Shown here: positions 3,890 through 17,680 of the stretch, piece by piece
Layout: each line of letters starts with the position of its first letter
Numbering within the stretch: the stretch's first letter is position 1
Source: Candidatus Saccharimonas aalborgensis
GTDB taxonomy: Bacteria > Patescibacteriota > Saccharimonadia > Saccharimonadales > Saccharimonadaceae
Assembly: GCF_000392435.1 (NCBI RefSeq)
Contig: NC_021219.1
Span: forward strand, 900,001-932,000
Length of the DNA: 32,000 nucleotides
Direction: 5' to 3'
Notes under the pieces: model-generated
The model's input: only the letters and a program-made list of their open reading frames with translations
Told to the model about the DNA's origin: nothing
Database searches by the model: none
Position numbers and translations under genes: made by a program

Positions 3890-5070
3890 AGCGTTACTGT
3901 ACGCGTCAGTGTCTGCGCATGTTTTGCGATTTCAAGCGATTCGTTGGCGGGAATAACAATGATGGGACGCGACTTTGCGGCTTGGCTAACACTTGTTAGT
4001 TTTTCGGGCGAGGTACAAGCATCATTGAGATCGCCATCGAGGATAAAATCGATAAACTCAAGGTGCGCGACGATTCGTTTACGTATGACAGCCGAACGCT
4101 CCCCCACTGTGCCCGTAAACACCAGCAGGTCACAGCCATTAAGAGCGACAATCATACTTCCTATCGCCTTATGTAGACTATGGATCAACGTATCAAGTGC
4201 GAGGTGAGCCATGTGGTTGCCATCGGCCTCACGCGAGATCAGCTCGCGAATATCGTTACTCCCAGAAAGCCCGAGGAGCCCTGCCTGCCTATTGAGGTAT
4301 TCCTCAATTTTGTCGTCATTCATTTGCAAGTTTTTTTTGAGAGCTTTGACCGCTCCAAAATCAATCGAGCCACTGCGAGAGGCCATGATGACACCTTCGA
4401 GTGGGGAGTACCCCATTGATGTGTCGATACTACGACCGTGAAACACCCCTGTCACCGACGAGCCGCTACCAAGATGGCAGACGACGACCTTCGGTGGCAA
4501 CTTGCCACGATCCCAGAGTGCATCGATTGCCGCGGCTACTGATAGTCCGTGGTAGCCAAATCGTTTGATGTCAAATTGATCAGCATCATGAATGGCGATA
4601 CCGTAGTTCCACGCATAATTTGGCTTAGTCGCATGAAAGGCACTATCGCTCACACCCACGACAGTAGCCTCGGGGTATGCTTCGCGTAAGCGACGGAGTT
4701 CCTCAAGCGACGCGTCGACATGAAGAGGTGCGTGTTCACGAACCTCCTGAAGTTTGGCGACCACCTCGTCGTTGATAATGTGGTCACTCATAAAATAACT
4801 ACTGGGCGCGACAATGCGGAGGCCAATTGTCGCAATCGTTTCATTTTCCTCAATACTATGATGGTAGCGAAAGATGGTAGTGAGATGTGACGCCGACTCG
4901 GCTAGATCACTATACTCGAGAGGCACATTTGTTGTTGTTTGATGATGGTGCAGTGTCGCGGCGAGGCGCTCACCGACCGTCTCGATATGAAGTTCAGCAC
5001 GAAGCTGGAGGGTGTCGTCATAAAGGGCGTATTTTCGACTTGAGCTGCCGGGATTAGCAACGAGGATCAT
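3886..5070 (-). CDS. ackA: Acetate kinase
   Basis: Motifs ILVANPGSSSRKYALY, FGYHGLS and VVCHLGSGSSV; 394 aa; located directly downstream of phosphoketolase. Confidence 0.9.
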   Translation of the reverse strand: MILVANPGSSSRKYALYDDTLQLRAELHIETVGERLAATLHHHQTTTNVPLEYSDLAESASHLTTIFRYHHSIEENETIATIGLRIVAPSSYFMSDHIINDEVVAKLQEVREHAPLHVDASLEELRRLREAYPEATVVGVSDSAFHATKPNYAWNYGIAIHDADQFDIKRFGYHGLSVAAAIDALWDRGKLPPKVVVCHLGSGSSVTGVFHGRSIDTSMGYSPLEGVIMASRSGSIDFGAVKALKKNLQMNDDKIEEYLNRQAGLLGLSGSNDIRELISREADGNHMAHLALDTLIHSLHKAIGSMIVALNGCDLLVFTGTVGERSAVIRKRIVAHLEFIDFILDGDLNDACTSPEKLTSVSQAAKSRPIIVIPANESLEIAKHAQTLTRTVTL

Positions 5071-5084
5071 AGAGTGTCTGCCCT

Positions 5085-7487
5085 CTAGTTAGTTTGACCA
5101 TGCCAGGCTTCTTCCTCCGTCTTGACAAGGCCACGTGCTGCGGGCCACACCCACGCATCAAGTTCCGGCAGGTCGATACCATTGGCTTTGATGTATTCAG
5201 TATTTTCGTCGATCTTTGCTTTGTATTTTGCGGCGAGATGCTCGGCTTCTTCAAATGGCATCACACCATCGTGGCCTAATTGTTTGAAAGCAGCAATCAC
5301 CAGGTCGTAGCGACTGGTCTCATTTCGGACGTGCATGTCAAATGGCGTAGTTGTGCTGCCAATCTCTTTGTAACCGCGGACGTCAAATCGTGTCGAATCA
5401 ACCGCGTAATTAAAGAGTACCGACTTGATAGTTTGAGGATAGCCATGGAAGTTGAAGATTACTGGTTTGTCCTCGGTAAAGATATGATCAAACAGTTTTT
5501 GGTCGGCGGTGTTGTTGAGTGTCCCAAATCCCATAGTGGTGAGACTACTGACATTGACACAGCGCAGTCGCACCTCGGGGCGTTCAGTTTTGATGATATC
5601 GATGGCGGCCATAATCTCTTTTGTTGGGTAATCACCTGCTGCGGCCATGACGAGATCGGGATTATCATCTGATGCGAAGTCCCACACTAGCACTCCTTGA
5701 TCGATTTGTTCGCGAGCTTTATTTACGTCAAGCCAGCGTGGCTCGACGGTTTTGCCGGCGACAATAGCATTGATCTGACGCACGCTCGTGAGCATTTTCT
5801 CGATGACAACAAGCGAGCAGTTACCATCTGCCGGGAAATAAACATCGCTGAAATTGCTTTGGCGACGGAGTAGGTCGTCGATAAAGCCAGGGTTTTGGTG
5901 GCTAAAGCCGTTGTGATCCTGGCGCCATCCACTACTTGTGAGGATATAGTTGATGCTTGGAATCGTCCCTCGCCAGGAAACACCGCGGCTCTGCGTCAAA
6001 AACTTGGCGTACTGATCGACCATACTACTCACTACTTGCAAAAATGCTTCATAACTGGCAAACATAGCATGACGGCCGGTCAATACATAGCCCTGCATGA
6101 GTCCTTGCATATTGTGTTCGGAGAGCATTTCCATGACTCGACCATCTTGGGAAAGATCCTTATCCCAGTCGCGCAGCGGCCATTGCCAGCTACGAGAAGT
6201 TGCTTTGAATATATCGTCAAGCTTATTGCTATACGTTTCGTCTGGAGACATAAATCGAAAGTTCTTCGTCTCGGCATTGAGGCGAAATACCTCCTCGAGA
6301 TAGAGGCCGGTACGGCGCATCGAGCTACTGCCCATCGTACCTGGTACGGTGGCGTCTTCGGCAAATTGCTCGACAGATGGAAGTCGGAGTGGTGTGTACA
6401 CACTGTCGCCGCCATGAGCATGCCGGCTTCTGCCCATGCGTTTCTCTGGATTTTCTGGCAAAATATCACCTACGAAGCTACCAAAGCCCTGCTCTTCACT
6501 AAATAGTTCGCTAAACTTGTAGCCACCCAACCACTCGTTGAGCATAGCTAGTTGGTGTTCGTCGGTTTTTGCTTCGGTCAGAACTACCTGGTGCGCTAGG
6601 CAGTTTCCCTCGATCTTATCCCCATCAAGTTCTTTTGGCCCTGTCCAGCCCTTGAGGGTACGCATGATAAGCATTGGCAGACGCGGGCAAACGGTGTCTT
6701 GAGAGACTTTTAGCTCCTCGATGGTCGTATGAGCCCAATCGAGTGCTTCTGCCATACGATCATGGGCTTCGTTTTCGTCGCAGTCGGTGGTATCGACAAT
6801 CCGCGGTTCATAGCCATAGCCGCTAAAGAGCGTCATCAATTCGTAATTGCTCATGCGGCCATAGATAGTTGGTTGAGAAATCTTATAGCCATTGAGGTGA
6901 AGAATTGGCAAGACCACACCGTCTTTGCGCGGATTGACGAGTTTATTGAGATGCCACGCACCGGCAGTTGGACCCGTCTCGGCTTCGCCATCTCCGACAA
7001 GACAGGCAACGATCAGGCCGGGATTATCGAGGATAGCGCCATAGCTGGTACTTAGACTATACCCCAGCTCACCTCCTTCGAGGATAACCCCGGGGGTCTC
7101 GGGATTTGAGTGACTTGGGTAGCCGTACGGCCAACTAAACTCACGGCACAGACGACGGATGCCATCGAGATTGACTGGAAGCGAGGGGTCAAAATGAGTT
7201 AGCGTCCCCTCGAGGAAGAGATTTGCCTGAAGCGCAGGGAATCCATGCCCTGGACCGAGGACAAACATCATGTCTTGGTCGTATTTTTTTGCAAAACGAC
7301 TGAGGTGCGCATAAGCAAAGTTGATGCCTGGCCCACTACCCCAGTGTCCAAGAAGTCGGCTCTTGACGTCATCAAACGTTAGCTCACGCTTCATAAGGTG
7401 GTTATCTGCTAAAAAAATTTGAGCGACTGTCAAATAATTGACAGCACGCAAATATTGGCCCATTGAGTGTTTTTCGTGATTATTCAT
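5085..7487 (-). CDS. xfp: Xylulose-5-P/fructose-6-P phosphoketolase
   Basis: Motifs GHWGSGPGINF, EGGELGYSL and GDGEAETGP; about 800 aa. I prefer the start MNNHEKHSMGQYL at 7487, because a TATACT -10 box at 7498-7503 lies 10 nt upstream, over the longer ORF-track start at 7532. Confidence 0.9.
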   Translation of the reverse strand: MNNHEKHSMGQYLRAVNYLTVAQIFLADNHLMKRELTFDDVKSRLLGHWGSGPGINFAYAHLSRFAKKYDQDMMFVLGPGHGFPALQANLFLEGTLTHFDPSLPVNLDGIRRLCREFSWPYGYPSHSNPETPGVILEGGELGYSLSTSYGAILDNPGLIVACLVGDGEAETGPTAGAWHLNKLVNPRKDGVVLPILHLNGYKISQPTIYGRMSNYELMTLFSGYGYEPRIVDTTDCDENEAHDRMAEALDWAHTTIEELKVSQDTVCPRLPMLIMRTLKGWTGPKELDGDKIEGNCLAHQVVLTEAKTDEHQLAMLNEWLGGYKFSELFSEEQGFGSFVGDILPENPEKRMGRSRHAHGGDSVYTPLRLPSVEQFAEDATVPGTMGSSSMRRTGLYLEEVFRLNAETKNFRFMSPDETYSNKLDDIFKATSRSWQWPLRDWDKDLSQDGRVMEMLSEHNMQGLMQGYVLTGRHAMFASYEAFLQVVSSMVDQYAKFLTQSRGVSWRGTIPSINYILTSSGWRQDHNGFSHQNPGFIDDLLRRQSNFSDVYFPADGNCSLVVIEKMLTSVRQINAIVAGKTVEPRWLDVNKAREQIDQGVLVWDFASDDNPDLVMAAAGDYPTKEIMAAIDIIKTERPEVRLRCVNVSSLTTMGFGTLNNTADQKLFDHIFTEDKPVIFNFHGYPQTIKSVLFNYAVDSTRFDVRGYKEIGSTTTPFDMHVRNETSRYDLVIAAFKQLGHDGVMPFEEAEHLAAKYKAKIDENTEYIKANGIDLPELDAWVWPAARGLVKTEEEAWHGQTN

Positions 7488-12201: not shown

Positions 12202-12381
12202 ATTCTTGCCCTTTCGATATAGTTTATTAGCCCTTACGCTTAGTTATAGCACAGGTAGGGTTTACAAGTTAAGAAAAACTACCACACGATAGGTTAGTTC
12301 TACTTTGAGTCATTGGCTATGTTACAATGATCCGTGGTTTATAAAATAATTACAGGTTCGCTTTTTCTGTTAAACACTTCA

Positions 12382-13248
12382 ATGAATACTCTAGTGGAAA
12401 AGTTAAGCTCTCATCAGCAAAGTACTCGCAATAAATGGCGTCACGAGCGACCACTGTCGAATCATGATTGGTGGATGTATCTTAGTCTACTGTTCTTGGT
12501 AATCGGTACTTTGCTAATGATTCCGCTTGGCCAGAAAATAGAGGGCGTGACTGTTCTGGGGGTTGGCGCACTGATGACCTTTGGTGCAACCCGTGCGTAT
12601 AGTCGACATGCGCTACTCATATTCTTGTCTATTGCAATTATTGGGGTTGCGCCAATAGGTACGAGTATAGATCTTATGCACATAATATCGATGGGCGCGT
12701 TGATAGGGCTAGCTGTGCTCATACCGTTTGTGGTAACACGATTCTTGTACAAAGAATCTGTAATACGCTTTCCAATCGGACGGCACACTTGGACCCGGGG
12801 ACACGTTGGGTATCTGCTTTTGGCGTGTATATTGAGTTATCTCATATTGCCGTATTGGATGCAGACGACGGGAGCGTATCAGAATTGGGTAGTTGAGAAT
12901 GACCCATACCATTTATTCATTTTGTTTCTTGGTACGAACGGCTTAGGCATTTGGGATGAGCTGTTCTTTATTGTTACGGTATTGGCGCTACTTAAACGGC
13001 ATATGCCGTTTCATCAAGCAAATCTTGTACAAGCACTACTATTCACCTCATTTTTATATGAGCTAGGGTTTCGTGGCTGGGCTCCATTTATTATCTATCC
13101 CTTTGCGCTGCTCCAGGGTCTAGTATTTCGTCGGACCGATAACCTGGTATATATTATTGCGATTCACCTGACGATCGATTTCGTATTGTATTTAGCTTTG
13201 ATCAATGCCCATCATCCTCAACTATTAAATATTTTTATAACAAGGTAG
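12382..13248 (+). CDS. CPBP/Abi-like intramembrane protease family protein (divergent), paralog 1
   Basis: Polytopic membrane protein with GIWDELFF, FTSFLYELGFRGW and AIHLTIDF (EE-like and HxxxD motifs). I prefer the ATG at 12382 (MNTLVEKL) over the ORF-track GTG at 12334. Confidence 0.45.
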   Translation: MNTLVEKLSSHQQSTRNKWRHERPLSNHDWWMYLSLLFLVIGTLLMIPLGQKIEGVTVLGVGALMTFGATRAYSRHALLIFLSIAIIGVAPIGTSIDLMHIISMGALIGLAVLIPFVVTRFLYKESVIRFPIGRHTWTRGHVGYLLLACILSYLILPYWMQTTGAYQNWVVENDPYHLFILFLGTNGLGIWDELFFIVTVLALLKRHMPFHQANLVQALLFTSFLYELGFRGWAPFIIYPFALLQGLVFRRTDNLVYIIAIHLTIDFVLYLALINAHHPQLLNIFITR

Positions 13249-13303
13249 CGCGGAGACAGCTATAGTAGTATATCTTTCACCTGCCAGCAGACAGTTTCTG
13301 GGT

Positions 13304-14056
13304 ATGGCCCTTCCCCTCGCTGGGGGTTATATAACGATAGTTACGCGGTTAAGTCAGGTGATCGGTTACATTCTGATTGCTCTATCACTTCTGGTACTAA
13401 TCAGTCTTCGTCACAGTCGAGAGCGTAACTATATGCTCTGGCTATGGTTGGGAGTGGCAATGCTAGCGATTACGCCAATTGGTACAGAGGTTAAGCCATA
13501 TTATTTAATATTTATGACCCTTGGCCTGGCGGCATCCGTCTTAGTACCTTATGGACTAGCTAGGCGTTATGATGAACATTCATTTATCCATCTTGGGCTT
13601 AACTTCCGTCGTCGCTGGACAAGAAACGAGGTTAAGTATGTGGTGTTTGCAGCGGTGATGACAGCATTTTGGCAACCGCTTTATTTTCTAACGACGAATG
13701 CCCATTTTAGCTGGCATATGGATACGACAGTCAACATTCTTGTATCGTTTGCGTCTATTATGGCGGTAGGCGTATGGGAGGAATTTTTCTTTATAGCCCT
13801 CGTGCTGGCCATTGCAAAACGCTACTTGCCGTTTTGGTTAGCAAACATTATCCAAAGTTCTATGTTTACGAGCTTTCTATTTGCTATGGGTTTTAGGGGT
13901 TGGATTGTCCCATTAGTTCTAGCTTATGCCCTATACCAAGGTTATGTATTCCATGTTACTCGGAGTCTTCTGGTGACTATAAGCATACACGTCATAGTAG
14001 ATATCATTGTGTTTATTTCATTGCTCTACAGTGCTCGCCCAGATTTGTTCAGTTAA
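13304..14056 (+). CDS. CPBP/Abi-like intramembrane protease family protein (divergent), paralog 2
   Basis: Motifs GVWEEFFF, FTSFLFAMGFRGW and SIHVIVDI. It is clearly paralogous to the upstream gene. Confidence 0.45.
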   Translation: MALPLAGGYITIVTRLSQVIGYILIALSLLVLISLRHSRERNYMLWLWLGVAMLAITPIGTEVKPYYLIFMTLGLAASVLVPYGLARRYDEHSFIHLGLNFRRRWTRNEVKYVVFAAVMTAFWQPLYFLTTNAHFSWHMDTTVNILVSFASIMAVGVWEEFFFIALVLAIAKRYLPFWLANIIQSSMFTSFLFAMGFRGWIVPLVLAYALYQGYVFHVTRSLLVTISIHVIVDIIVFISLLYSARPDLFS

Positions 14057-14310
14057 TCAAACAAATATCAAAAAGGCATGTCTTTGAAAATTTCAGCTCG
14101 GTGTGGTGAATCTTGTTGGTTGTGTGCTAGAAGGTTGACGAATTGCACTGTTTGAGCGTATTTCGGATCGTCTCAAAGTGAGCAATAATTGTGGTGAGCT
14201 CGGATCTAATTCCCTGAAACACCTTGACTAATCAACTGAGGCCTCTATCCTAGAGAGGCGTATCAAGCACCCTGCATCGCAGAATAAGTAAAGAGGCTAA
14301 TATACAGGAA

Positions 14311-14355
14311 AAGAAAATATCTCTTTTGTTCTTGTGGCAAAAGAGATATTTTCTT
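14311..14355 (-). terminator. Hairpin (17-bp perfect stem) inferred to be the displaced native terminator of tRNA-Gln
   Basis: AAGAAAATATCTCTTTT (14311-14327) pairs with AAAAGAGATATTTTCTT (14339-14355) around an 11-nt loop. On the minus strand the hairpin is followed by a U-rich tract (UUUUCUUUUCC, partly within the stem). It abuts the TTGGCT junction core. Confidence 0.55.
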
Positions 14356-14516
14356 GGCTCAATTTTACAACGAAGCTAGAACCTATTTCCAACACAAAGT
14401 CTAAACCAAGCCCCGCCAGACCTGACTTTTACAATTTTTCTATCTTTTACCCCCGCCGTACATCATTTTTAATTGAGAAAAAGTCAGGTCTGTCGGGTCG
14501 GTTGCGCTGGAGTGCA
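14354..14516. repeat. Repeat block L (163 bp), the reverse complement of 15559-15721
   Basis: Manual alignment gives 162/163 identity; the single mismatch is 14420 versus 15655. Confidence 0.9.
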
Positions 14517-14565
14517 GAATACCACACAATATCATGAGCTAACAGAGGTAAGAGCGTCGTAAGAG

Positions 14566-14594
14566 TTGACATAATAATAAAGTTAGTGTATAAT
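14566..14594 (+). promoter_or_regulatory. Consensus sigma70 promoter TTGACA-N17-TATAAT for the cargo gene
   Basis: Sequence ttgaca taataataaagttagtg tataat, then 10 nt, then the ATG at 14605. Confidence 0.65.
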
Positions 14595-14604
14595 GTCATT
14601 ATAC

Positions 14605-15393
14605 ATGTCTGAATGGAAAATAGCGACTCCCATAAACAAATTTGAGCACCTGGATAGTGGCTCACAGATTGACATTGTCTCTGTTGTTCATGTTGGCACG
14701 CCTGACTACTACAGAAAGTTAGGCAATTATATTACGACGAGACAAAATAATGGCTTTACTGTTCACTATGAGACAATTTCATCAGATGATAAAATGACTC
14801 CACCGACAAATCCTATAGAATCTCTAAAAACTAGAGTTCAAGAAGCCAGAACTGACATATCTGCCGATAATCTTATATTAGTAGAAGACTATAGCAATTA
14901 CACTACTCAGTGTGACTCTGATATGTTTAATATTTCAGATGCTGAAAATCACGATATCACAGAGGCTGATTACGTCCGCCGTTCAGGCCTTTTAACACTT
15001 ACGGGAAATTGGATTAATGCGCGCCGTTTAAACCATAAGCTAGAAAAAGCTGCCAACAGAGGATCGGATATTATGGACGAACTTATTTTTGACTTGCTCA
15101 AAAAGGACATAGATGCGATAGCAAACGGCACGCGGCGTAATAAAAGACGGGACGGGGTTACAATACATGCACGCAATCAGATAGCACTGGAAGGCATAGA
15201 TACTGCACTAGCCGATAACTCAGCGGCCAAGCTGTTACTGGTTTGGGGCATTGGACACCTTGCGGGACTGCAGTCTGGTCTAATATATAGAGGCTACGCG
15301 CTTACCGACCATGAAGAAGTTGACGTAGCAGTAAACTATGCTCAGCTGAGGCGTAATATGGACACAAATGAACTAGCGCTACAGCGGCCGTAA
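14605..15393 (+). CDS. TraB/GumN (TIKI-superfamily)-like protein, the element's cargo
   Basis: C-terminal AKLLLVWGIGHLAGLQSGLIYRGYAL matches the GAGHLxGxxGL...GY motif of GumN/TraB. The N-terminus has IVSVVHVGTPDYY...HYE. I moved the start from 14593 (which lies inside the -10 box) to 14605. Confidence 0.45.
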   Translation: MSEWKIATPINKFEHLDSGSQIDIVSVVHVGTPDYYRKLGNYITTRQNNGFTVHYETISSDDKMTPPTNPIESLKTRVQEARTDISADNLILVEDYSNYTTQCDSDMFNISDAENHDITEADYVRRSGLLTLTGNWINARRLNHKLEKAANRGSDIMDELIFDLLKKDIDAIANGTRRNKRRDGVTIHARNQIALEGIDTALADNSAAKLLLVWGIGHLAGLQSGLIYRGYALTDHEEVDVAVNYAQLRRNMDTNELALQRP

Positions 15394-15742
15394 GTGAAAC
15401 TTGGTAGATAATCGGTCATTATAAATAGACGCCTACCTAGCGTTGAGTAATGACCCAAATAGCGATGTAGCATGTAACTGACCATAAGGCTACAAGTATA
15501 AAGAATTGGAGCGCGGCATACGCTTTGGATTACTATCTATAATCATATTCAACTGCCATGCACTCCAGCGCAACCGACCCGACAGACCTGACTTTTTCTC
15601 AATTAAAAATGATGTACGGCGGGGGTAAAAGATAGAAAAATTGTAAAAGTCAGGGCTGGCGGGGCTTGGTTTAGACTTTGTGTTGGAAATAGGTTCTAGC
15701 TTCGTTGTAAAATTGAGCCAAATTCGGACTTTTTAGGAATTG

Positions 15743-15769
15743 GTCGCCCATTTGGGCGGCTTTTTCTTT
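15743..15769 (+). terminator. Intrinsic terminator inside block C
   Basis: GUCGCCC-AUUU-GGGCGGC followed by UUUUUCUUUG. Confidence 0.55.
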
Positions 15770-15823
15770 GGTTGCGCAGAGCGCAAGCCAGATGTTTTCT
15801 TGGGGGGGGGAATTGGAATTGGT

Positions 15824-15850
15824 GCGCGGCAGGAGCCGCGCTTGTTTTTA
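15824..15850 (+). terminator. Second intrinsic terminator inside block C
   Basis: GCGCGGC-AGGA-GCCGCGC followed by UUGUUUUUA. Confidence 0.55.
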
Positions 15851-15872
15851 GACCGCCGCAGGCGGTTTTCCT

Positions 15873-15881
15873 TGGTATAAT
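15873..15881 (+). promoter_or_regulatory. Possible extended -10 promoter (TGgTATAAT) for the recombinase
   Basis: tggtataat lies 122 nt upstream of the recombinase ATG. I saw no convincing -35 box. Confidence 0.3.
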
Positions 15882-16003
15882 GAAAGAGCAACCAACCAGT
15901 GAAGAATTGTTTTATTTGAGGGCTTTAATGGCCGTCTTGGACAATCTAGTTCTTCTAGGTTGGTTGCACCAGGACGGTCATTTAAGTTTTAGGGGGTGAA
16001 ACT

Positions 16004-17680
16004 ATGCGCGAAAAATACTTTTTATACGCTCGCAAGAGTACAGACGTAGAGGACAAACAAGTTTTGTCCATTGAGGCGCAAATTGCCGAACTTCGGAAAT
16101 ACGCCAGAGATAACGGCTTGCAAATCGTAGACACCATTATTGAAAAACGCACCGCCAAAATACCAGGTCGCCCGAAGTTCGGATCAATGCTTGCTCGCAT
16201 TGAAGCTGGCGAAGCCAATGGCATTATTGCGTGGCACCCCGACAGATTGGCGCGTAACTCGGTGGACGGCGGACAAATTGTCTATTTGTTAGACCAAATG
16301 TGCCTACAGGTGTTAAAGTTCCCAACATTTTGGTTTGAGAATACCAGTCAGGGTAAGTTTATGCTGTCTATTGCGTTTGGACAGAGCAAGTATTATGTAG
16401 ACAATTTGTCTGAAAACACCAAGCGCGGTTTGCGCCAGAAAGTCAGGCGCGGCGAAATGCCCGGACTTGCACCGCTTGGTTACATAAATGATGTACGTAC
16501 CCGCACCATTGCTGTAGATAAACGGCGTGCGCCGCTGGTTGTATCGGCTTTTGAGTTATACAGTAAAGGCGACAAAGGCTTACAGGAAATTGCCGACTAT
16601 TTTGCAGATAACGGTATAAAAACCAGCGGTGGCTTGCCGCTGAAAAAAGACCAAATCAAATATATGCTGACAAATCCGTTTTACTACGGACATTTTAGAT
16701 ATGCTGGCGAAGTCTACGAGGGCAAGCATGCGACGATTATGTCCAAGAAACTGTTTGACGCGGTGCAATCCGTACTGGAACAGCGCGGACACAAGCGAAA
16801 AGGCGCAAATGCGCCACAAGCCTTGTGCGGCTTACTGACCTGCGGCGCGTGCAATATGGCGATTACTGCCGAGAAAAAGATAAAACACCAAAAGAATGGC
16901 AATATACACGAATATACCTATTACCGTTGCACGCGCAAAAGCAAAATTATGAAATGCACCGAGCCAGCTGTAACCGAACCGCAACTTGTGGCGCAATTAT
17001 CTGACATTTTGCAGGGCTACGCCCTGCCGAGTGCGTGGGCAAACACACTAAACAAAATGCTGAACGAGGACGAGAAAACAGCCGAGCGAACCACTGGCGC
17101 ATTTATAGCCCAAGCACAAGACAATGTGCGTAACTTGCAAGGCAAGTTACAGCGACTTCTTGACGGCTATTTAGACCAAGATATTGACCAGCCAACATAC
17201 AAAGCCAAACAAGCCGAACTGATGAGCGAAAAGAAGTCGCTGGACGAGCAAATTGGCAAGCTAACGCTTGCCGCTAATGCGTGGGTTGAACCTATGCGCC
17301 AGTGGCTAAAAATGGCTGTTTCTCTCAAGAAAATAGCAGAAAACGCCGAGCCGACAGCCATAAAAGCCACGTTTGCTGAAATTGACGGATTGAACCTCTT
17401 TTTATCTAAAAAACAAGCGCGGCTCCTGCCGCGCACCAATTCCAATTCCCCCCAAGAAAACATCTGGCTTGCGCTCTGCGCAACCAAAGAAAAAGCCGCC
17501 CAAATGGGCGACCAATTCCTAAAAAGTCCGAATTTGGCTGGGGTGGAGGGATTCGAACCCCCGAATGCATGGACCAAAACCATGTGCCTTACCACTTGGC
17601 GACACCCCATTATTGCAACAGCAAATTGCTTCAGCAGTATACCACGAGAGGCGTTACTATTGCTATCCCCCGCTGCTTAG
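16004..17680 (+). CDS. Large serine recombinase (integrase)
   Basis: Motifs YARKSTDVEDKQVLSIEAQ (catalytic Ser region), HPDRLARN, a recombinase domain, the zinc ribbon CGLLTCGACN...YYRCTRK and a coiled-coil region. The ribosome-binding site is AGGGGGTG. The ORF has no stop before 17680, so it crosses block R, attR and the antisense of the tRNA. Confidence 0.9.
   Translation: MREKYFLYARKSTDVEDKQVLSIEAQIAELRKYARDNGLQIVDTIIEKRTAKIPGRPKFGSMLARIEAGEANGIIAWHPDRLARNSVDGGQIVYLLDQMCLQVLKFPTFWFENTSQGKFMLSIAFGQSKYYVDNLSENTKRGLRQKVRRGEMPGLAPLGYINDVRTRTIAVDKRRAPLVVSAFELYSKGDKGLQEIADYFADNGIKTSGGLPLKKDQIKYMLTNPFYYGHFRYAGEVYEGKHATIMSKKLFDAVQSVLEQRGHKRKGANAPQALCGLLTCGACNMAITAEKKIKHQKNGNIHEYTYYRCTRKSKIMKCTEPAVTEPQLVAQLSDILQGYALPSAWANTLNKMLNEDEKTAERTTGAFIAQAQDNVRNLQGKLQRLLDGYLDQDIDQPTYKAKQAELMSEKKSLDEQIGKLTLAANAWVEPMRQWLKMAVSLKKIAENAEPTAIKATFAEIDGLNLFLSKKQARLLPRTNSNSPQENIWLALCATKEKAAQMGDQFLKSPNLAGVEGFEPPNAWTKTMCLTTWRHPIIATANCFSSIPREALLLLSPAA
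17405..17539. repeat. Repeat block R (135 bp), the reverse complement of 15716-15852
   Basis: Identical by manual alignment except C6 (17448-17453) versus G9 (15802-15810), and A6 versus T5 near the outer end. Confidence 0.9.
17485..17512 (-). terminator. Element-borne intrinsic terminator 23 nt downstream of the tRNA-Gln 3' end
   Basis: This is the minus-strand copy of the 15743-15769 hairpin plus its U-tract, inside block R. Confidence 0.5.
17535..17609 (-). tRNA. tRNA-Gln (anticodon UUG), CCA encoded
   Basis: The minus strand reads UGGGGUGUCGCCAAGUGGUAAGGCACAUGGUUUUGGUCCAUGCAUUCGGGGGUUCGAAUCCCUCCACCCCAGCCA. It folds as a cloverleaf with anticodon loop UUUUGGU, and closely resembles E. 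coli tRNA-Gln (U1-A72, G73). Confidence 0.9.

Follow-up and report, generated by a model that had tools for sequence, protein, structure and literature searches.

We describe here a compact integrative element of Candidatus Saccharimonas aalborgensis that occupies positions 14354 to 17539 of a 32,000-nucleotide stretch of contig NC_021219.1 (positions 900,001 to 932,000; this whole stretch is hereafter the window, and its own numbering is used throughout). The element holds two genes, one for a cargo protein and one for a large serine recombinase (LSR), and adjoins the 3' end of a tRNA-Gln gene. Three recombination sites, S1, S2 and S3, share the core TTGGCT; the outer two bound the element, and the middle one is a complete, inverted copy of the attachment site attP, in which the core is flanked by the arms P and P'. 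This three-site architecture is a family trait and not a one-off. The features of the locus are as follows, with IR1 and IR2 denoting the inverted repeats formed by the P' and the P arms, and B and B' the two halves of the host site attB.

14311-14355, minus strand: host-side flank (B), a hairpin with a T-run (inverted repeat I4, 14311-14328 / 14338-14355).
14354-14359, plus strand: S1 core TTGGCT, the crossover region of attL and an identity block common to S1, S2 and S3; probable crossover dinucleotide CT at 14358-14359.
14354-14516, plus strand: block L, the core and P' arm (outer arm of IR1), from the repeat search and sequence reading.
14517-15558, plus strand: unique segment 1 (cargo), with a sigma-70 consensus promoter at 14566-14594 and a 266-aa open reading frame (ORF) at 14593-15393.
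15559-15852, minus strand: block C, which is S2, a complete inverted attP (P-core-P'); core AGCCAA at 15716-15721, left part the inner arm of IR1, right part an arm of IR2.
15853-16003, plus strand: recombinase promoter and leader, with a terminator hairpin, an extended -10 element TGGTATAAT at 15873-15881 and a structured leader of about 110 nt running to the Shine-Dalgarno sequence and ATG.
16004-17680, plus strand: LSR ORF in its integrated state, 558 aa; residues 1-512 (16004-17539) native, residues 513-558 read through into the antisense tRNA.
17405-17539, plus strand: block R, the P arm and core (outer arm of IR2; S3, attR), which encodes recombinase residues 468-512 and on the minus strand places two terminators directly past the tRNA.
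17535-17609, minus strand: tRNA-Gln(ttg), the target and B' half-site (ARAGORN; Rfam 61.4 bits), with its last 5 nt (AGCCA) inside the S3 core.

A repeat search of the window recovered three inverted pairs, I1 (14354-14516 / 15559-15721, 163 nt, 99%), I2 (15716-15807 / 17448-17539, 92 nt, 100%) and I3 (15805-15849 / 17409-17453, 45 nt, 100%). An earlier reading of the window from its letters alone (the sequence-only reading) had described the inverted blocks L, C and R with their TTGGCT junction, and the repeat search together with sequence reading confirmed each of them at the position listed above. The core stands as TTGGCT at 14354-14359 (S1) and 17534-17539 (S3), and as its complement AGCCAA at 15716-15721 (S2), in the overlap between the halves of block C. 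The differences between copies amount to one single-nucleotide difference (14420 A vs 15655 G), a G9/C6 run (15802-15810 / 17448-17453) and a T5/A6 run, and this list is complete. Chance is ruled out by the BLAST matches between the arms (E = 1.9e-81 and 1.9e-61). The reverse complement of block C (15559-15852) is exactly the end of R, the core and the start of L, and thus C matches the attP that excision would generate. It follows, in agreement with the sequence-only reading, that block C is a complete inverted attP and that an excised circle would hold two inverted attP sites with two unique segments between them. As the inverted S2 stands just upstream of the recombinase promoter, the recombinase module lies between inverted P arms of about 135 bp, and the cargo between inverted P' arms of 100-280 bp. 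Block L additionally contains a hairpin with a 19-bp stem (14412-14430 / 14479-14497), and the right part of block C carries two terminator-like hairpins on the plus strand (15742-15761, 15824-15841).

The boundaries of the element could be read from public contigs, 11 of which carry the exact recombinase protein. Among contigs carrying the flanking host protein, contig L093 presents the terminator hairpin followed by TTGGCT-GGGG without the cassette, and then a different, larger mobile element, while contig L101 has the two flanks of L093 with the 3,180-bp block between two copies of TTGGCT. This with/without polymorphism establishes that the 3,180-bp block is a single insertion at the 3' end of tRNA-Gln. 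Insertion is precise, and the short core is common to attL, attR and the empty site (empty in L093; occupied in L101 and in the window). Thus, the presence of a 3,180-bp, LSR-driven integrative cassette of Candidatus Saccharimonas aalborgensis at a tRNA gene 3' end is shown; the sequence-only reading had bounded its element by TTGGCT at this tRNA and had called for a search for the empty attB, and the pair of empty and occupied sites bears out the first and answers the second. That the structure is not an assembly artefact, also part of that reading, is borne out by six independent contigs (MEGAHIT k119/k127 from several samples, and a metagenome-assembled genome from NCBI), which match the window at 100% identity over the 3,601 bp that surround the element, copy-to-copy differences included. 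No exact repeat stretch exceeds 96 nt, which is below the assembler k, and the repeat structure is therefore resolvable by assemblers. In L093 the terminator hairpin directly abuts TTGGCT-GGGG, and the host flanks of S1 at other loci are likewise terminator hairpins; the hairpin at 14311-14355 is the displaced bidirectional terminator of tRNA-Gln, which would adjoin the tRNA 3' end in the empty site.

The recombinase has the domain order of a large serine integrase: Resolvase (PF00239, residues 6-151, E=7.8e-22), Recombinase (PF07508, residues 175-261, E=2e-16) and Zn_ribbon_recom (PF13408, residues 274-329, E=5.5e-07). Its catalytic domain is of the resolvase type, with a YARKST motif at residues 8-13 that is invariant in 58 homologs, and the zinc ribbon is accompanied by a coiled coil, AF2 predicting long helices at 345-425. 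Sequence matches in the PDB include the SPbeta and A118 integrases. The nearest named families are the Ccr recombinases and XisF, the best match being CcrB (E=1e-36); as the NCBIfam scores fall far under the family cut-offs (CcrB 126 vs 900 bits, CcrC 83 vs 900, CcrA 81 vs 700), the protein is not a member of Ccr.

The recombinase gene extends across the attachment site, a feature that the sequence-only reading had missed. When the ORF is spliced across P-core-P', the arrangement of a circle and also of the minus strand of S2, a stop codon follows 12-15 codons past the core, at the end of the peptide x[FLI]Yxx[AIV]RT[YHF]Fxxxx, in 33 of 34 elements. In the window this native tail is QFYNEARTYFQHKV followed by a stop; its last 14 codons and stop lie at 14360-14404 in block L, with a second copy inverted in block C, and the native-tail form of the enzyme would have 526 aa against 558 aa for the integrated form. 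The codons of the conserved Tyr, Arg, Thr and Phe vary synonymously only (TAC/TAT, AGA/CGA, ACC/ACT/ACA, TTT/TTC). A conserved tail peptide with synonymous changes indicates that the native C-terminus is encoded across attP and is under protein-level selection. The tails of the integrated forms are variable junk starting with xxxG[FILV]EP, which is the T-loop read antisense. Thus, with attP inside the recombinase gene and 14 codons from its stop, integration swaps a conserved C-terminal peptide for antisense-tRNA junk. In the AF2 model of a native-tail homolog (mean pLDDT, predicted local distance difference test, of 70; about 80 at the C-terminus), the last helix (510-527) spans the crossover at residues 513-514. 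On this model, about 13 of the 18 residues of the predicted final helix would be lost on integration and a Gly/Pro-rich sequence gained instead.

The same organization is widespread. More than 8,000 close homologs of the LSR exist, the top 120 of which are all at least 66% identical to it, and species-representative genomes contain more than 546 related loci, nearly all in Patescibacteria (Saccharibacteria, Nomura-, Morani-, Pacei-, Doudna-, Gottesman-, Woese- and Levybacteria). Where the flanks allow, the layout reads: host terminator, core and P'; cargo of 0.9-6 kb; reverse complements of P', core and P; promoter and leader; LSR; then P, core and tRNA 3' end. About 170 loci share the order S1-cargo-S2-LSR-S3, at more than 15 tRNA species, and at least 150 loci have a tRNA gene 3' end as their target (among the tRNAs used are Gln, Asn, Ser, Leu, Arg, Tyr, Met, Gly, Val, Lys, Thr, His, Glu, Ile, Ala and Trp). 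The sequence-only reading had proposed a search of candidate phyla radiation (CPR) genomes and metagenomes for this architecture at tRNA-Gln; the architecture recurred family-wide, an extent that the reading had missed, and the restriction to tRNA-Gln fell away. In 33 fully resolved loci the reverse complement of S2 is exactly P-core-P', and a complete P-core-P' is kept at S2 even in loci where S1 or the outer pair was not found. We term state A the arrangement in which the LSR ORF is truncated and reads into the intact antisense tRNA. IR2, the repeat that flanks the LSR, is present in 90 of 93 state-A copies in which the LSR adjoins the tRNA and enough upstream sequence is available; its arms are 100% identical in 41 of these and at least 97% identical in 72. 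A further, independent set of 80 metagenome loci, with LSR identities down to about 45%, has the same layout. The boundaries of the repeats differ from element to element.

Two loci depart from this layout in ways that deserve separate mention. At L015:3253-5065, an extra inverted pair (211 nt, 98.6%) of the host-side flank, comprising terminator and core, brackets 1.4 kb beside S1; the S3 side has no recognisable adjoining tRNA, and an LSR-mediated chromosomal rearrangement is possible. This pair was considered as a third cassette and rejected as such, being an inverted duplication of the host-side terminator flank and not of P'. Contig L192:1-7311 is a near-perfect palindrome, in which a 3.2-kb centre lies between 2,059-nt terminal inverted repeats (99.95%), each with an LSR module. 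Most likely the assembler folded back across the arms of IR1; the contig was set aside as evidence on that ground, and is a caution for automated annotation of this family of LSR cassettes.

Comparison across loci allowed the logic of the attachment sites to be worked out. The shared core is 3-10 nt long and lies at tRNA positions ~72-76. Two observations, the minimal 3-nt cores of some relatives (GCG, GAG, GTG) and the half-site symmetry by which P and P' have their GAA-containing outer motifs at equal spacing, place the crossover at positions 4-5 of TGGNN. The crossover would accordingly fall, in tRNA terms, on the dinucleotide formed by the discriminator and base 72, which is CT in the window. 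A T(C/A)GAACC motif occurs at 19-25 in the tRNA and at 23-29 in P', a 4-bp shift, with the T-loop TTCGAACC of the tRNA closer to the core than the TAGAACC of P'. In serine integrases the zinc-ribbon-domain motif is offset by 5 bp between attB and attP (PMC3783163). Judged by motif positions, the 4-bp shift between P' and tRNA is the relationship described for attP and attB half-sites of serine integrases, for which the published value is 5 bp. The host-side half-site B has no conservation across loci, which points to the tRNA end (acceptor and T-arm) as the sole specific half of attB, the other half probably being the unconserved terminator of the tRNA. Read outward from the core, the P arm contains two terminator-like hairpins; in S3 these take the place of the tRNA's displaced terminator, and in S2 they shield the recombinase from cargo transcription.

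The arms also carry a record of how the copies have evolved. P and P' are strongly divergent between members of the family and near-identical within each element, from which it follows that the copies evolve in concert. In seven imperfect repeats all mismatches are core-distal, and the 45-107 nt nearest the core match perfectly; had the mismatches been placed uniformly, each such case would have P=1e-5 to 5e-3. Decay can also be unequal between the repeats of a single element, with 0/185 against 10/138 mismatches in L034 and 12/178 against 0/137 in L059. This polarity suggests that gene conversion starts at the crossover site or close to it, as would be expected with a recombinase that cuts these sites in vivo.

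Orientation of the recombinase module is strongly biased, another aspect that escaped the sequence-only reading: the truncated orientation accounts for about 90-95% of copies and the distribution is not 50:50. Among 79 loci of the genome set, 62 are in state A, six read into tRNA remnants, one has a native tail and one is flipped; the metagenome set has 42 clear state-A copies, and in about 10 distant ones a tRNA lies downstream, as compared with about four copies that have a native tail and one that is flipped. The native tail appears in 14 of the 120 closest protein clusters. Well-supported flipped copies are L026, L104, L107, L108, L110 and L127, all with the order tRNA on the plus strand, reverse-complemented P, LSR reading into P-core-P', and cargo. 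The k141 contig L108 includes 7.6 kb of host genes, and its repeats are 100% identical; L104 runs on through the cargo to the reverse complement of P', the core and the host terminator. LSR-flanking repeats below 85% identity occur in three of six flipped copies and in four of 93 state-A copies (p=0.004). Relative to the LSR, the two strands carry cargo genes about equally often, and one homologous pair of cargoes (L012 and L028) is found in opposite orientations, the 3' end of the gene abutting an arm in each. Across the family, therefore, a segment bracketed by inverted crossover sites exists in both orientations, since the IR2 arms bracket an LSR module that faces either way relative to the tRNA. 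The sequence-only reading had raised recombinase-driven flipping of either segment, and natural copies go part of the way with it: the six loci named above carry LSR modules in opposite orientation, and cargo is found both ways across the family. Among the loci retrieved, no two near-identical elements were found at the same host site in opposite orientations, the nearest case being L110 and L051 at about 77-80% identity.

In three of the flipped copies, the tRNA-side P arm comes from another lineage than the LSR's own (L110, 3124-3260 against its LSR 3' end; L104, 8-89 against 1735-1816; L107, 2872-3006 against 5064-5198). These mismatched arms, and the likeness of L110's arm to that of L018, indicate modular shuffling of arms between elements.

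Elements also stack. L038:5636-12952 (= L122) holds two complete elements with different LSRs at one tRNA-Leu, joined by a hybrid junction of the first element's P, the core and the second element's P', and this junction gives the upstream LSR a native-type tail from its neighbour's P' arm. L103:207-9787 is a tandem array laid out in the same way. Regardless of which element arrived first, a hybrid site (P-core-tRNA or host-core-P') must have served for the second insertion, and hybrid sites thus stay reactive, unlike canonical attL and attR. The arrays appear to extend from the tRNA end, much as integrons do.

Taken together, the explanation that serves best overall, and to which we give an even chance of being right, is that integration attenuates the LSR and that inversion of its module, or excision, restores the enzyme. 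State A would be the resting state, with an attenuated, tail-less recombinase. If the LSR itself, or host RecA working on the perfect repeats, inverted the LSR module between S2 and S3, the gene would be re-fused to the spare tail encoded in P' and would yield the full-length enzyme; excision (S1 x S3) would likewise restore it. The full-length enzyme could then drive excision, re-integration or flipping back. Recombination of S2 (P-core-P') with S3 (P-core-tRNA) regenerates the same two site types, so that inversion would be reversible without a directionality factor, and with a full-length enzyme driving further recombination, the flipped state would be rare unless the repeats had decayed. 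Such a model would account for the universal retention of S2, for the strong and incomplete bias in orientation, and for the decayed repeats among flipped copies, which would be stuck. It would also account for both P copies being complete modules of half-site and terminator and both P' copies being complete gene ends. In line with it, no directionality-factor gene was recognised in the element, and the Ccr recombinases, the nearest named relatives of its LSR, perform both integration and excision.

Several observations weigh against this explanation. The difference in activity between full-length and truncated enzyme is wholly inferred, and the structural model of the LSR is of moderate confidence (mean pLDDT 70). 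The recombinase ORF is intact in all state-A copies, including L054 with its decayed repeats, which means that the truncated form may be functional. Among canonical serine integrases, attP and attR do not recombine. L108 is flipped with perfect repeats and is dominant in its sample, and the flipped state therefore need not be short-lived in every case. On short contigs, k-mer mis-joins across a perfect 135-nt repeat may lie behind some of the native-tail gene calls, and a scaffold of the window's own strain (L097), in which unique segment 1 is inverted past an N gap, is suggestive only, a scaffolding error being possible. Finally, circular forms were not seen among the assembled contigs, both among the ~170 loci and, as terminal overlaps, among the 80 metagenome loci.

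It is tempting to speculate further that the family as a whole is a self-regulating LSR device free of a directionality factor. Its attB would be one-sided so that P-core-tRNA still acts as attB; the internal inverted attP would flip the module between a full-length, active and a truncated, resting form; and stacking at the tRNA end into integron-like arrays would supply accessory metabolic genes to minimal CPR genomes. We put this fuller version forward tentatively, as rather less likely than not.

Among the alternatives to attenuation and restoration of the enzyme, the one that survives best, although we consider it unlikely, is that the two attP sites are equivalent and have no regulatory role. 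The element would integrate in either orientation, the inverted copy would persist since a direct copy is deleted by homologous recombination, and the bias would stem from later selection among integrated copies, acting for instance on transcription close to the tRNA. The geometry fits, both orientations occur in nature and state-A ORFs are intact; however, a free choice of site predicts about 50:50 where 90-95 to 5-10 is observed, and the symmetry of the repeats makes the 135-bp context downstream of the tRNA equal in both orientations. Retention of S2 in essentially all elements, down to about 45% LSR identity, and the decayed repeats among flipped copies are left unexplained.

S2 might instead be an accessory or operator site, at which a bound LSR dimer replaces the directionality factor in a three-site synapse (cf. 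Tn3 res) or represses the promoter. Its position just upstream of the promoter and leader, its universal conservation and the want of a directionality-factor gene are in keeping with such a role, but about 50 bp would suffice for it, not 290 bp identical to the outer arms. Moreover, the flipped copies, with the flanks of S2 and S3 exchanged, show that S2-type sites take part in rearrangement or integration, and the core-centred gradient of identity suggests cleavage at the core; we rate an operator role as decidedly unlikely.

More improbable still is a neutral legacy, in which an ancestral inverted duplication of the recombinase 3' end is homogenised by RecA-mediated gene conversion and flips are incidental. 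In its favour, RecA acts readily on repeats of 100-280 bp that lie a few kb apart, the decay of IR1 is independent of that of IR2 (L034, L059), and the repeat boundaries vary. A neutral 290-bp duplicate should nevertheless decay or vanish often, and 90 of 93 state-A loci still have IR2; homologous crossovers should randomise orientation, and random conversion should fray both ends of the arms and not just the core-distal one.

We see very little prospect for a single-stranded or fold-back intermediate, such as might enter by natural transformation, in which a double-stranded attP would arise by pairing of S2 with the P' arm of S1 and with the P arm of S3. CPR bacteria are reported to be naturally competent. 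Complementarity is strictest beside the core, transfer genes are lacking, and SCCmec moves by transformation and Ccr. Against this, serine recombinases cut both strands, and recombination of a stem-loop attP with attB, worked through on paper, leaves a linear chromosome with looped ends, from which recovery would take additional steps; there is no evidence of single-stranded forms, and a double-stranded circle is the simpler account.

Amplification coupled to replication as in the 2-micron plasmid, where inversion between a replicated and an unreplicated repeat redirects the fork, was a possibility raised by the sequence-only reading and is barely credible here. It has the inverted-repeat geometry of the inferred circle in its favour and nothing else: replication genes are wanting (one Replic_Relax match among 72 cargo ORFs, and no origin), no circular form was seen in the ~170 loci or as a circular contig in the ~80 metagenome loci, the family is nearly absent from viral contigs, and the enzyme is a serine recombinase. 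An artefact of assembly, multiple displacement amplification or scaffolding is next to impossible: inverted repeats do cause mis-joins (L192) and contig breaks, but the structure is identical in at least six independent assemblies and recurs in ~170 loci from many studies and assemblers, its exact repeats are shorter than k, and the coding and site logic is coherent over the junctions. We also considered two sequential integrations of circles with palindromic att sites (P with reverse-complemented P, and P' with reverse-complemented P'). The half-site algebra fits, but the recombination would have to violate site polarity, for which a palindromic crossover dinucleotide is needed; as the inferred dinucleotides (CT, TG, TA, AG) are mostly non-palindromic and the block moves as a unit between L093 and L101, this scenario was rejected.

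The cargo of the window element encodes a 266-aa protein that has no match in Pfam, NCBIfam or PADLOC, and its 14 homologs are without a Pfam domain. An AF2 model (pLDDT 87) is alpha/beta and has no significant fold match in the PDB. The label "TraB/GumN-like" given to it by the sequence-only reading is left unverified, since neither PF01963 of the TraB/PrgY/GumN (TIKI) group nor any other Pfam, NCBIfam or fold match was found. The 14 homologs (262-366 aa) share the invariant residues H33, G35, E60, W218, G219, H222, L223 and G225 (HVGTP...E...WGxGHLxGL). The family looks like an uncharacterised enzyme, possibly a distant TIKI/TraB-type hydrolase, the conserved motifs being a lead only. One contig (L114) is exactly the 1,042-bp cargo segment. 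Across the family, 72 cargo ORFs include six NUDIX hydrolases, HAD, methyltransferases, EamA, glyoxalase, alanine racemase, inositol monophosphatase, GDSL lipase and adenylate kinase; transfer genes were absent among them, and the Replic_Relax match was the single replication-related one. Domain and family searches of the two genes of the window element found no directionality-factor, replication or transfer gene, as the sequence-only reading had stated. Directionality factors are diverse and could be host- or trans-encoded. An ORF at 15772-15999 and a 39-aa ORF starting with ATG were considered for this role and rejected: the promoter and a covarying leader lie there, and neither has a family match. 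All copies of the element that were seen are chromosomal, and the junction pattern LSR-P-core-P' of the window lineage had no match in the metagenome scan. A viral origin was rejected, there being only two partial matches in IMG/VR and the family being essentially absent from viral contigs.

The region between S2 and the recombinase start codon (15853-16003) has features of a regulatory RNA. In an alignment of 29 family members, RNAalifold gave 14 pairs, nine of them with compensatory changes, in a nested long hairpin whose outer helix (15923-15942 / 15970-15987) has its 3' strand abutting the Shine-Dalgarno sequence; Rfam has no match to the region. A more distal helix, GCAACCAACC/GGTTGGTTGC, shows covariation by eye. 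The leader is a candidate cis-regulatory RNA for translation of the recombinase.

The neighbourhood of the element is itself variable. The second, larger mobile element of L093:8057-13243 and L101:8952-9269 encodes a PLD-like nuclease, a DUF8128/DUF87/TrwB-like ATPase and a 477-aa protein, and sits 4 nt deeper in the same tRNA-Gln (host site of window position 17540), after TTGGCTGGGG. As it is seen both with (L101) and without (L093) the LSR cassette, this tRNA-Gln is a multi-element hotspot. In a related genome (GCA_964267585.1; L091:8040-8056, corresponding to window 14345-17622), both the element and the tRNA-Gln gene are missing at this place, and ACATCAACCTTCAAAAG stands for the whole tRNA and part of the terminator; a deletion tied to loss of the element and relocation of the tRNA are both possible. 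Directly upstream of the insertion site, at 12334-14056, the window has two adjacent paralogous Rce1-like membrane proteins (of the CAAX protease or bacteriocin-immunity type). In L092, L096 and L098 homology to the window ends right past this pair, at 14057, and a different region follows, so that variability extends beyond the LSR element.

Full-text literature searches returned no description of the three-site architecture, nor of LSR elements in CPR bacteria, in line with the sequence-only reading, to which no described serine-integrase element of this structure was known. The family-wide architecture, the split recombinase gene and the core-polar concerted evolution appear to be undescribed even without the switch model. 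If that model holds, the cassette would represent a new control of the direction and timing of a serine integrase, in which the configuration of the DNA edits the C-terminus of the enzyme and a spare inverted site makes the switch reversible without an accessory protein. The inverted spare of gene end and attachment site may, in other words, act as a built-in on/off switch of mobility. This would be of use in genome engineering, where reversible or resettable LSR switches now need a separate directionality factor, and the generic tRNA 3' end target, with the crossover dinucleotide apparently its main variable, would suggest a simple route to retargeting. The cassette family may also be the dominant small vehicle of gene delivery in Patescibacteria, whose genomes are minimal and hold few recognised mobile elements, with a cargo that includes NUDIX hydrolases, HAD phosphatases, methyltransferases, transporters and racemases.

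Among known systems, the elements of phiC31, Bxb1 and the A118/LI integrases resemble the cassette in protein organization (resolvase, recombinase, zinc ribbon and coiled coil), in conservative insertion at a short shared core and in an outer attP motif that lies further out. The cassette differs from them in having one specific attB half, an attP within the integrase ORF, a second inverted attP and no directionality-factor gene; its hybrid P-core-tRNA site appears still usable, and it is 3-6 kb long and not a phage. The Hin, Gin, Cin and Pin systems likewise combine a serine recombinase gene with a segment between inverted sites, and regenerate their site types reversibly. Those invertases are, however, small (~190 aa) proteins with a helix-turn-helix, act on 26-bp sites with a Fis-bound enhancer and are not mobile, whereas the cassette is integrative, has arms of 135-280 bp and encodes a protein of 526/558 aa with LSR C-terminal domains.

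The sequence-only reading had likened the inferred circle to the 2-micron plasmid with its FLP/FRT system, and the geometry upholds this: two long identical inverted repeats, a site at the centre of each, two unique segments and the recombinase in one of them. The resemblance ends there. FLP is a tyrosine recombinase of an autonomous replicon that uses inversion for copy number, whereas the cassette has a serine enzyme and no replication function and is found integrated. An enzyme whose form depends on the state of the DNA has a precedent in Mx8 intP/intX and in SSV1, where attP lies inside the integrase gene and integration alters or splits the 3' part of the ORF. These are tyrosine integrases, which are not known to carry an inverted spare of site or gene end. 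The tycheposons of Prochlorococcus share tRNA targeting, site-specific integrases and tandem junctions with the cassette, and reportedly carry small adaptive cargo. Nearly all of them (910/937) use tyrosine recombinases, many carry replication genes, and excised and tandem-repeat junctions have been seen in cultures; an internal inverted attP or a split integrase has not been described for them.

The closest functional analogue is the staphylococcal cassette chromosome (SCC) with its Ccr recombinases. The two differ in target (a tRNA, not rlmH, also called orfX) and in enzyme (one recombinase, not a CcrA/B pair), and SCC is without an internal inverted attP or a split recombinase gene. Composite and tandem SCC arrays exist. 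In SCC, as may be the case here, one recombinase handles both integration and excision, and transfer by natural transformation depends on Ccr and attB. Both are small cassettes of cargo genes that lack transfer functions and reside at the 3' end of a conserved gene.

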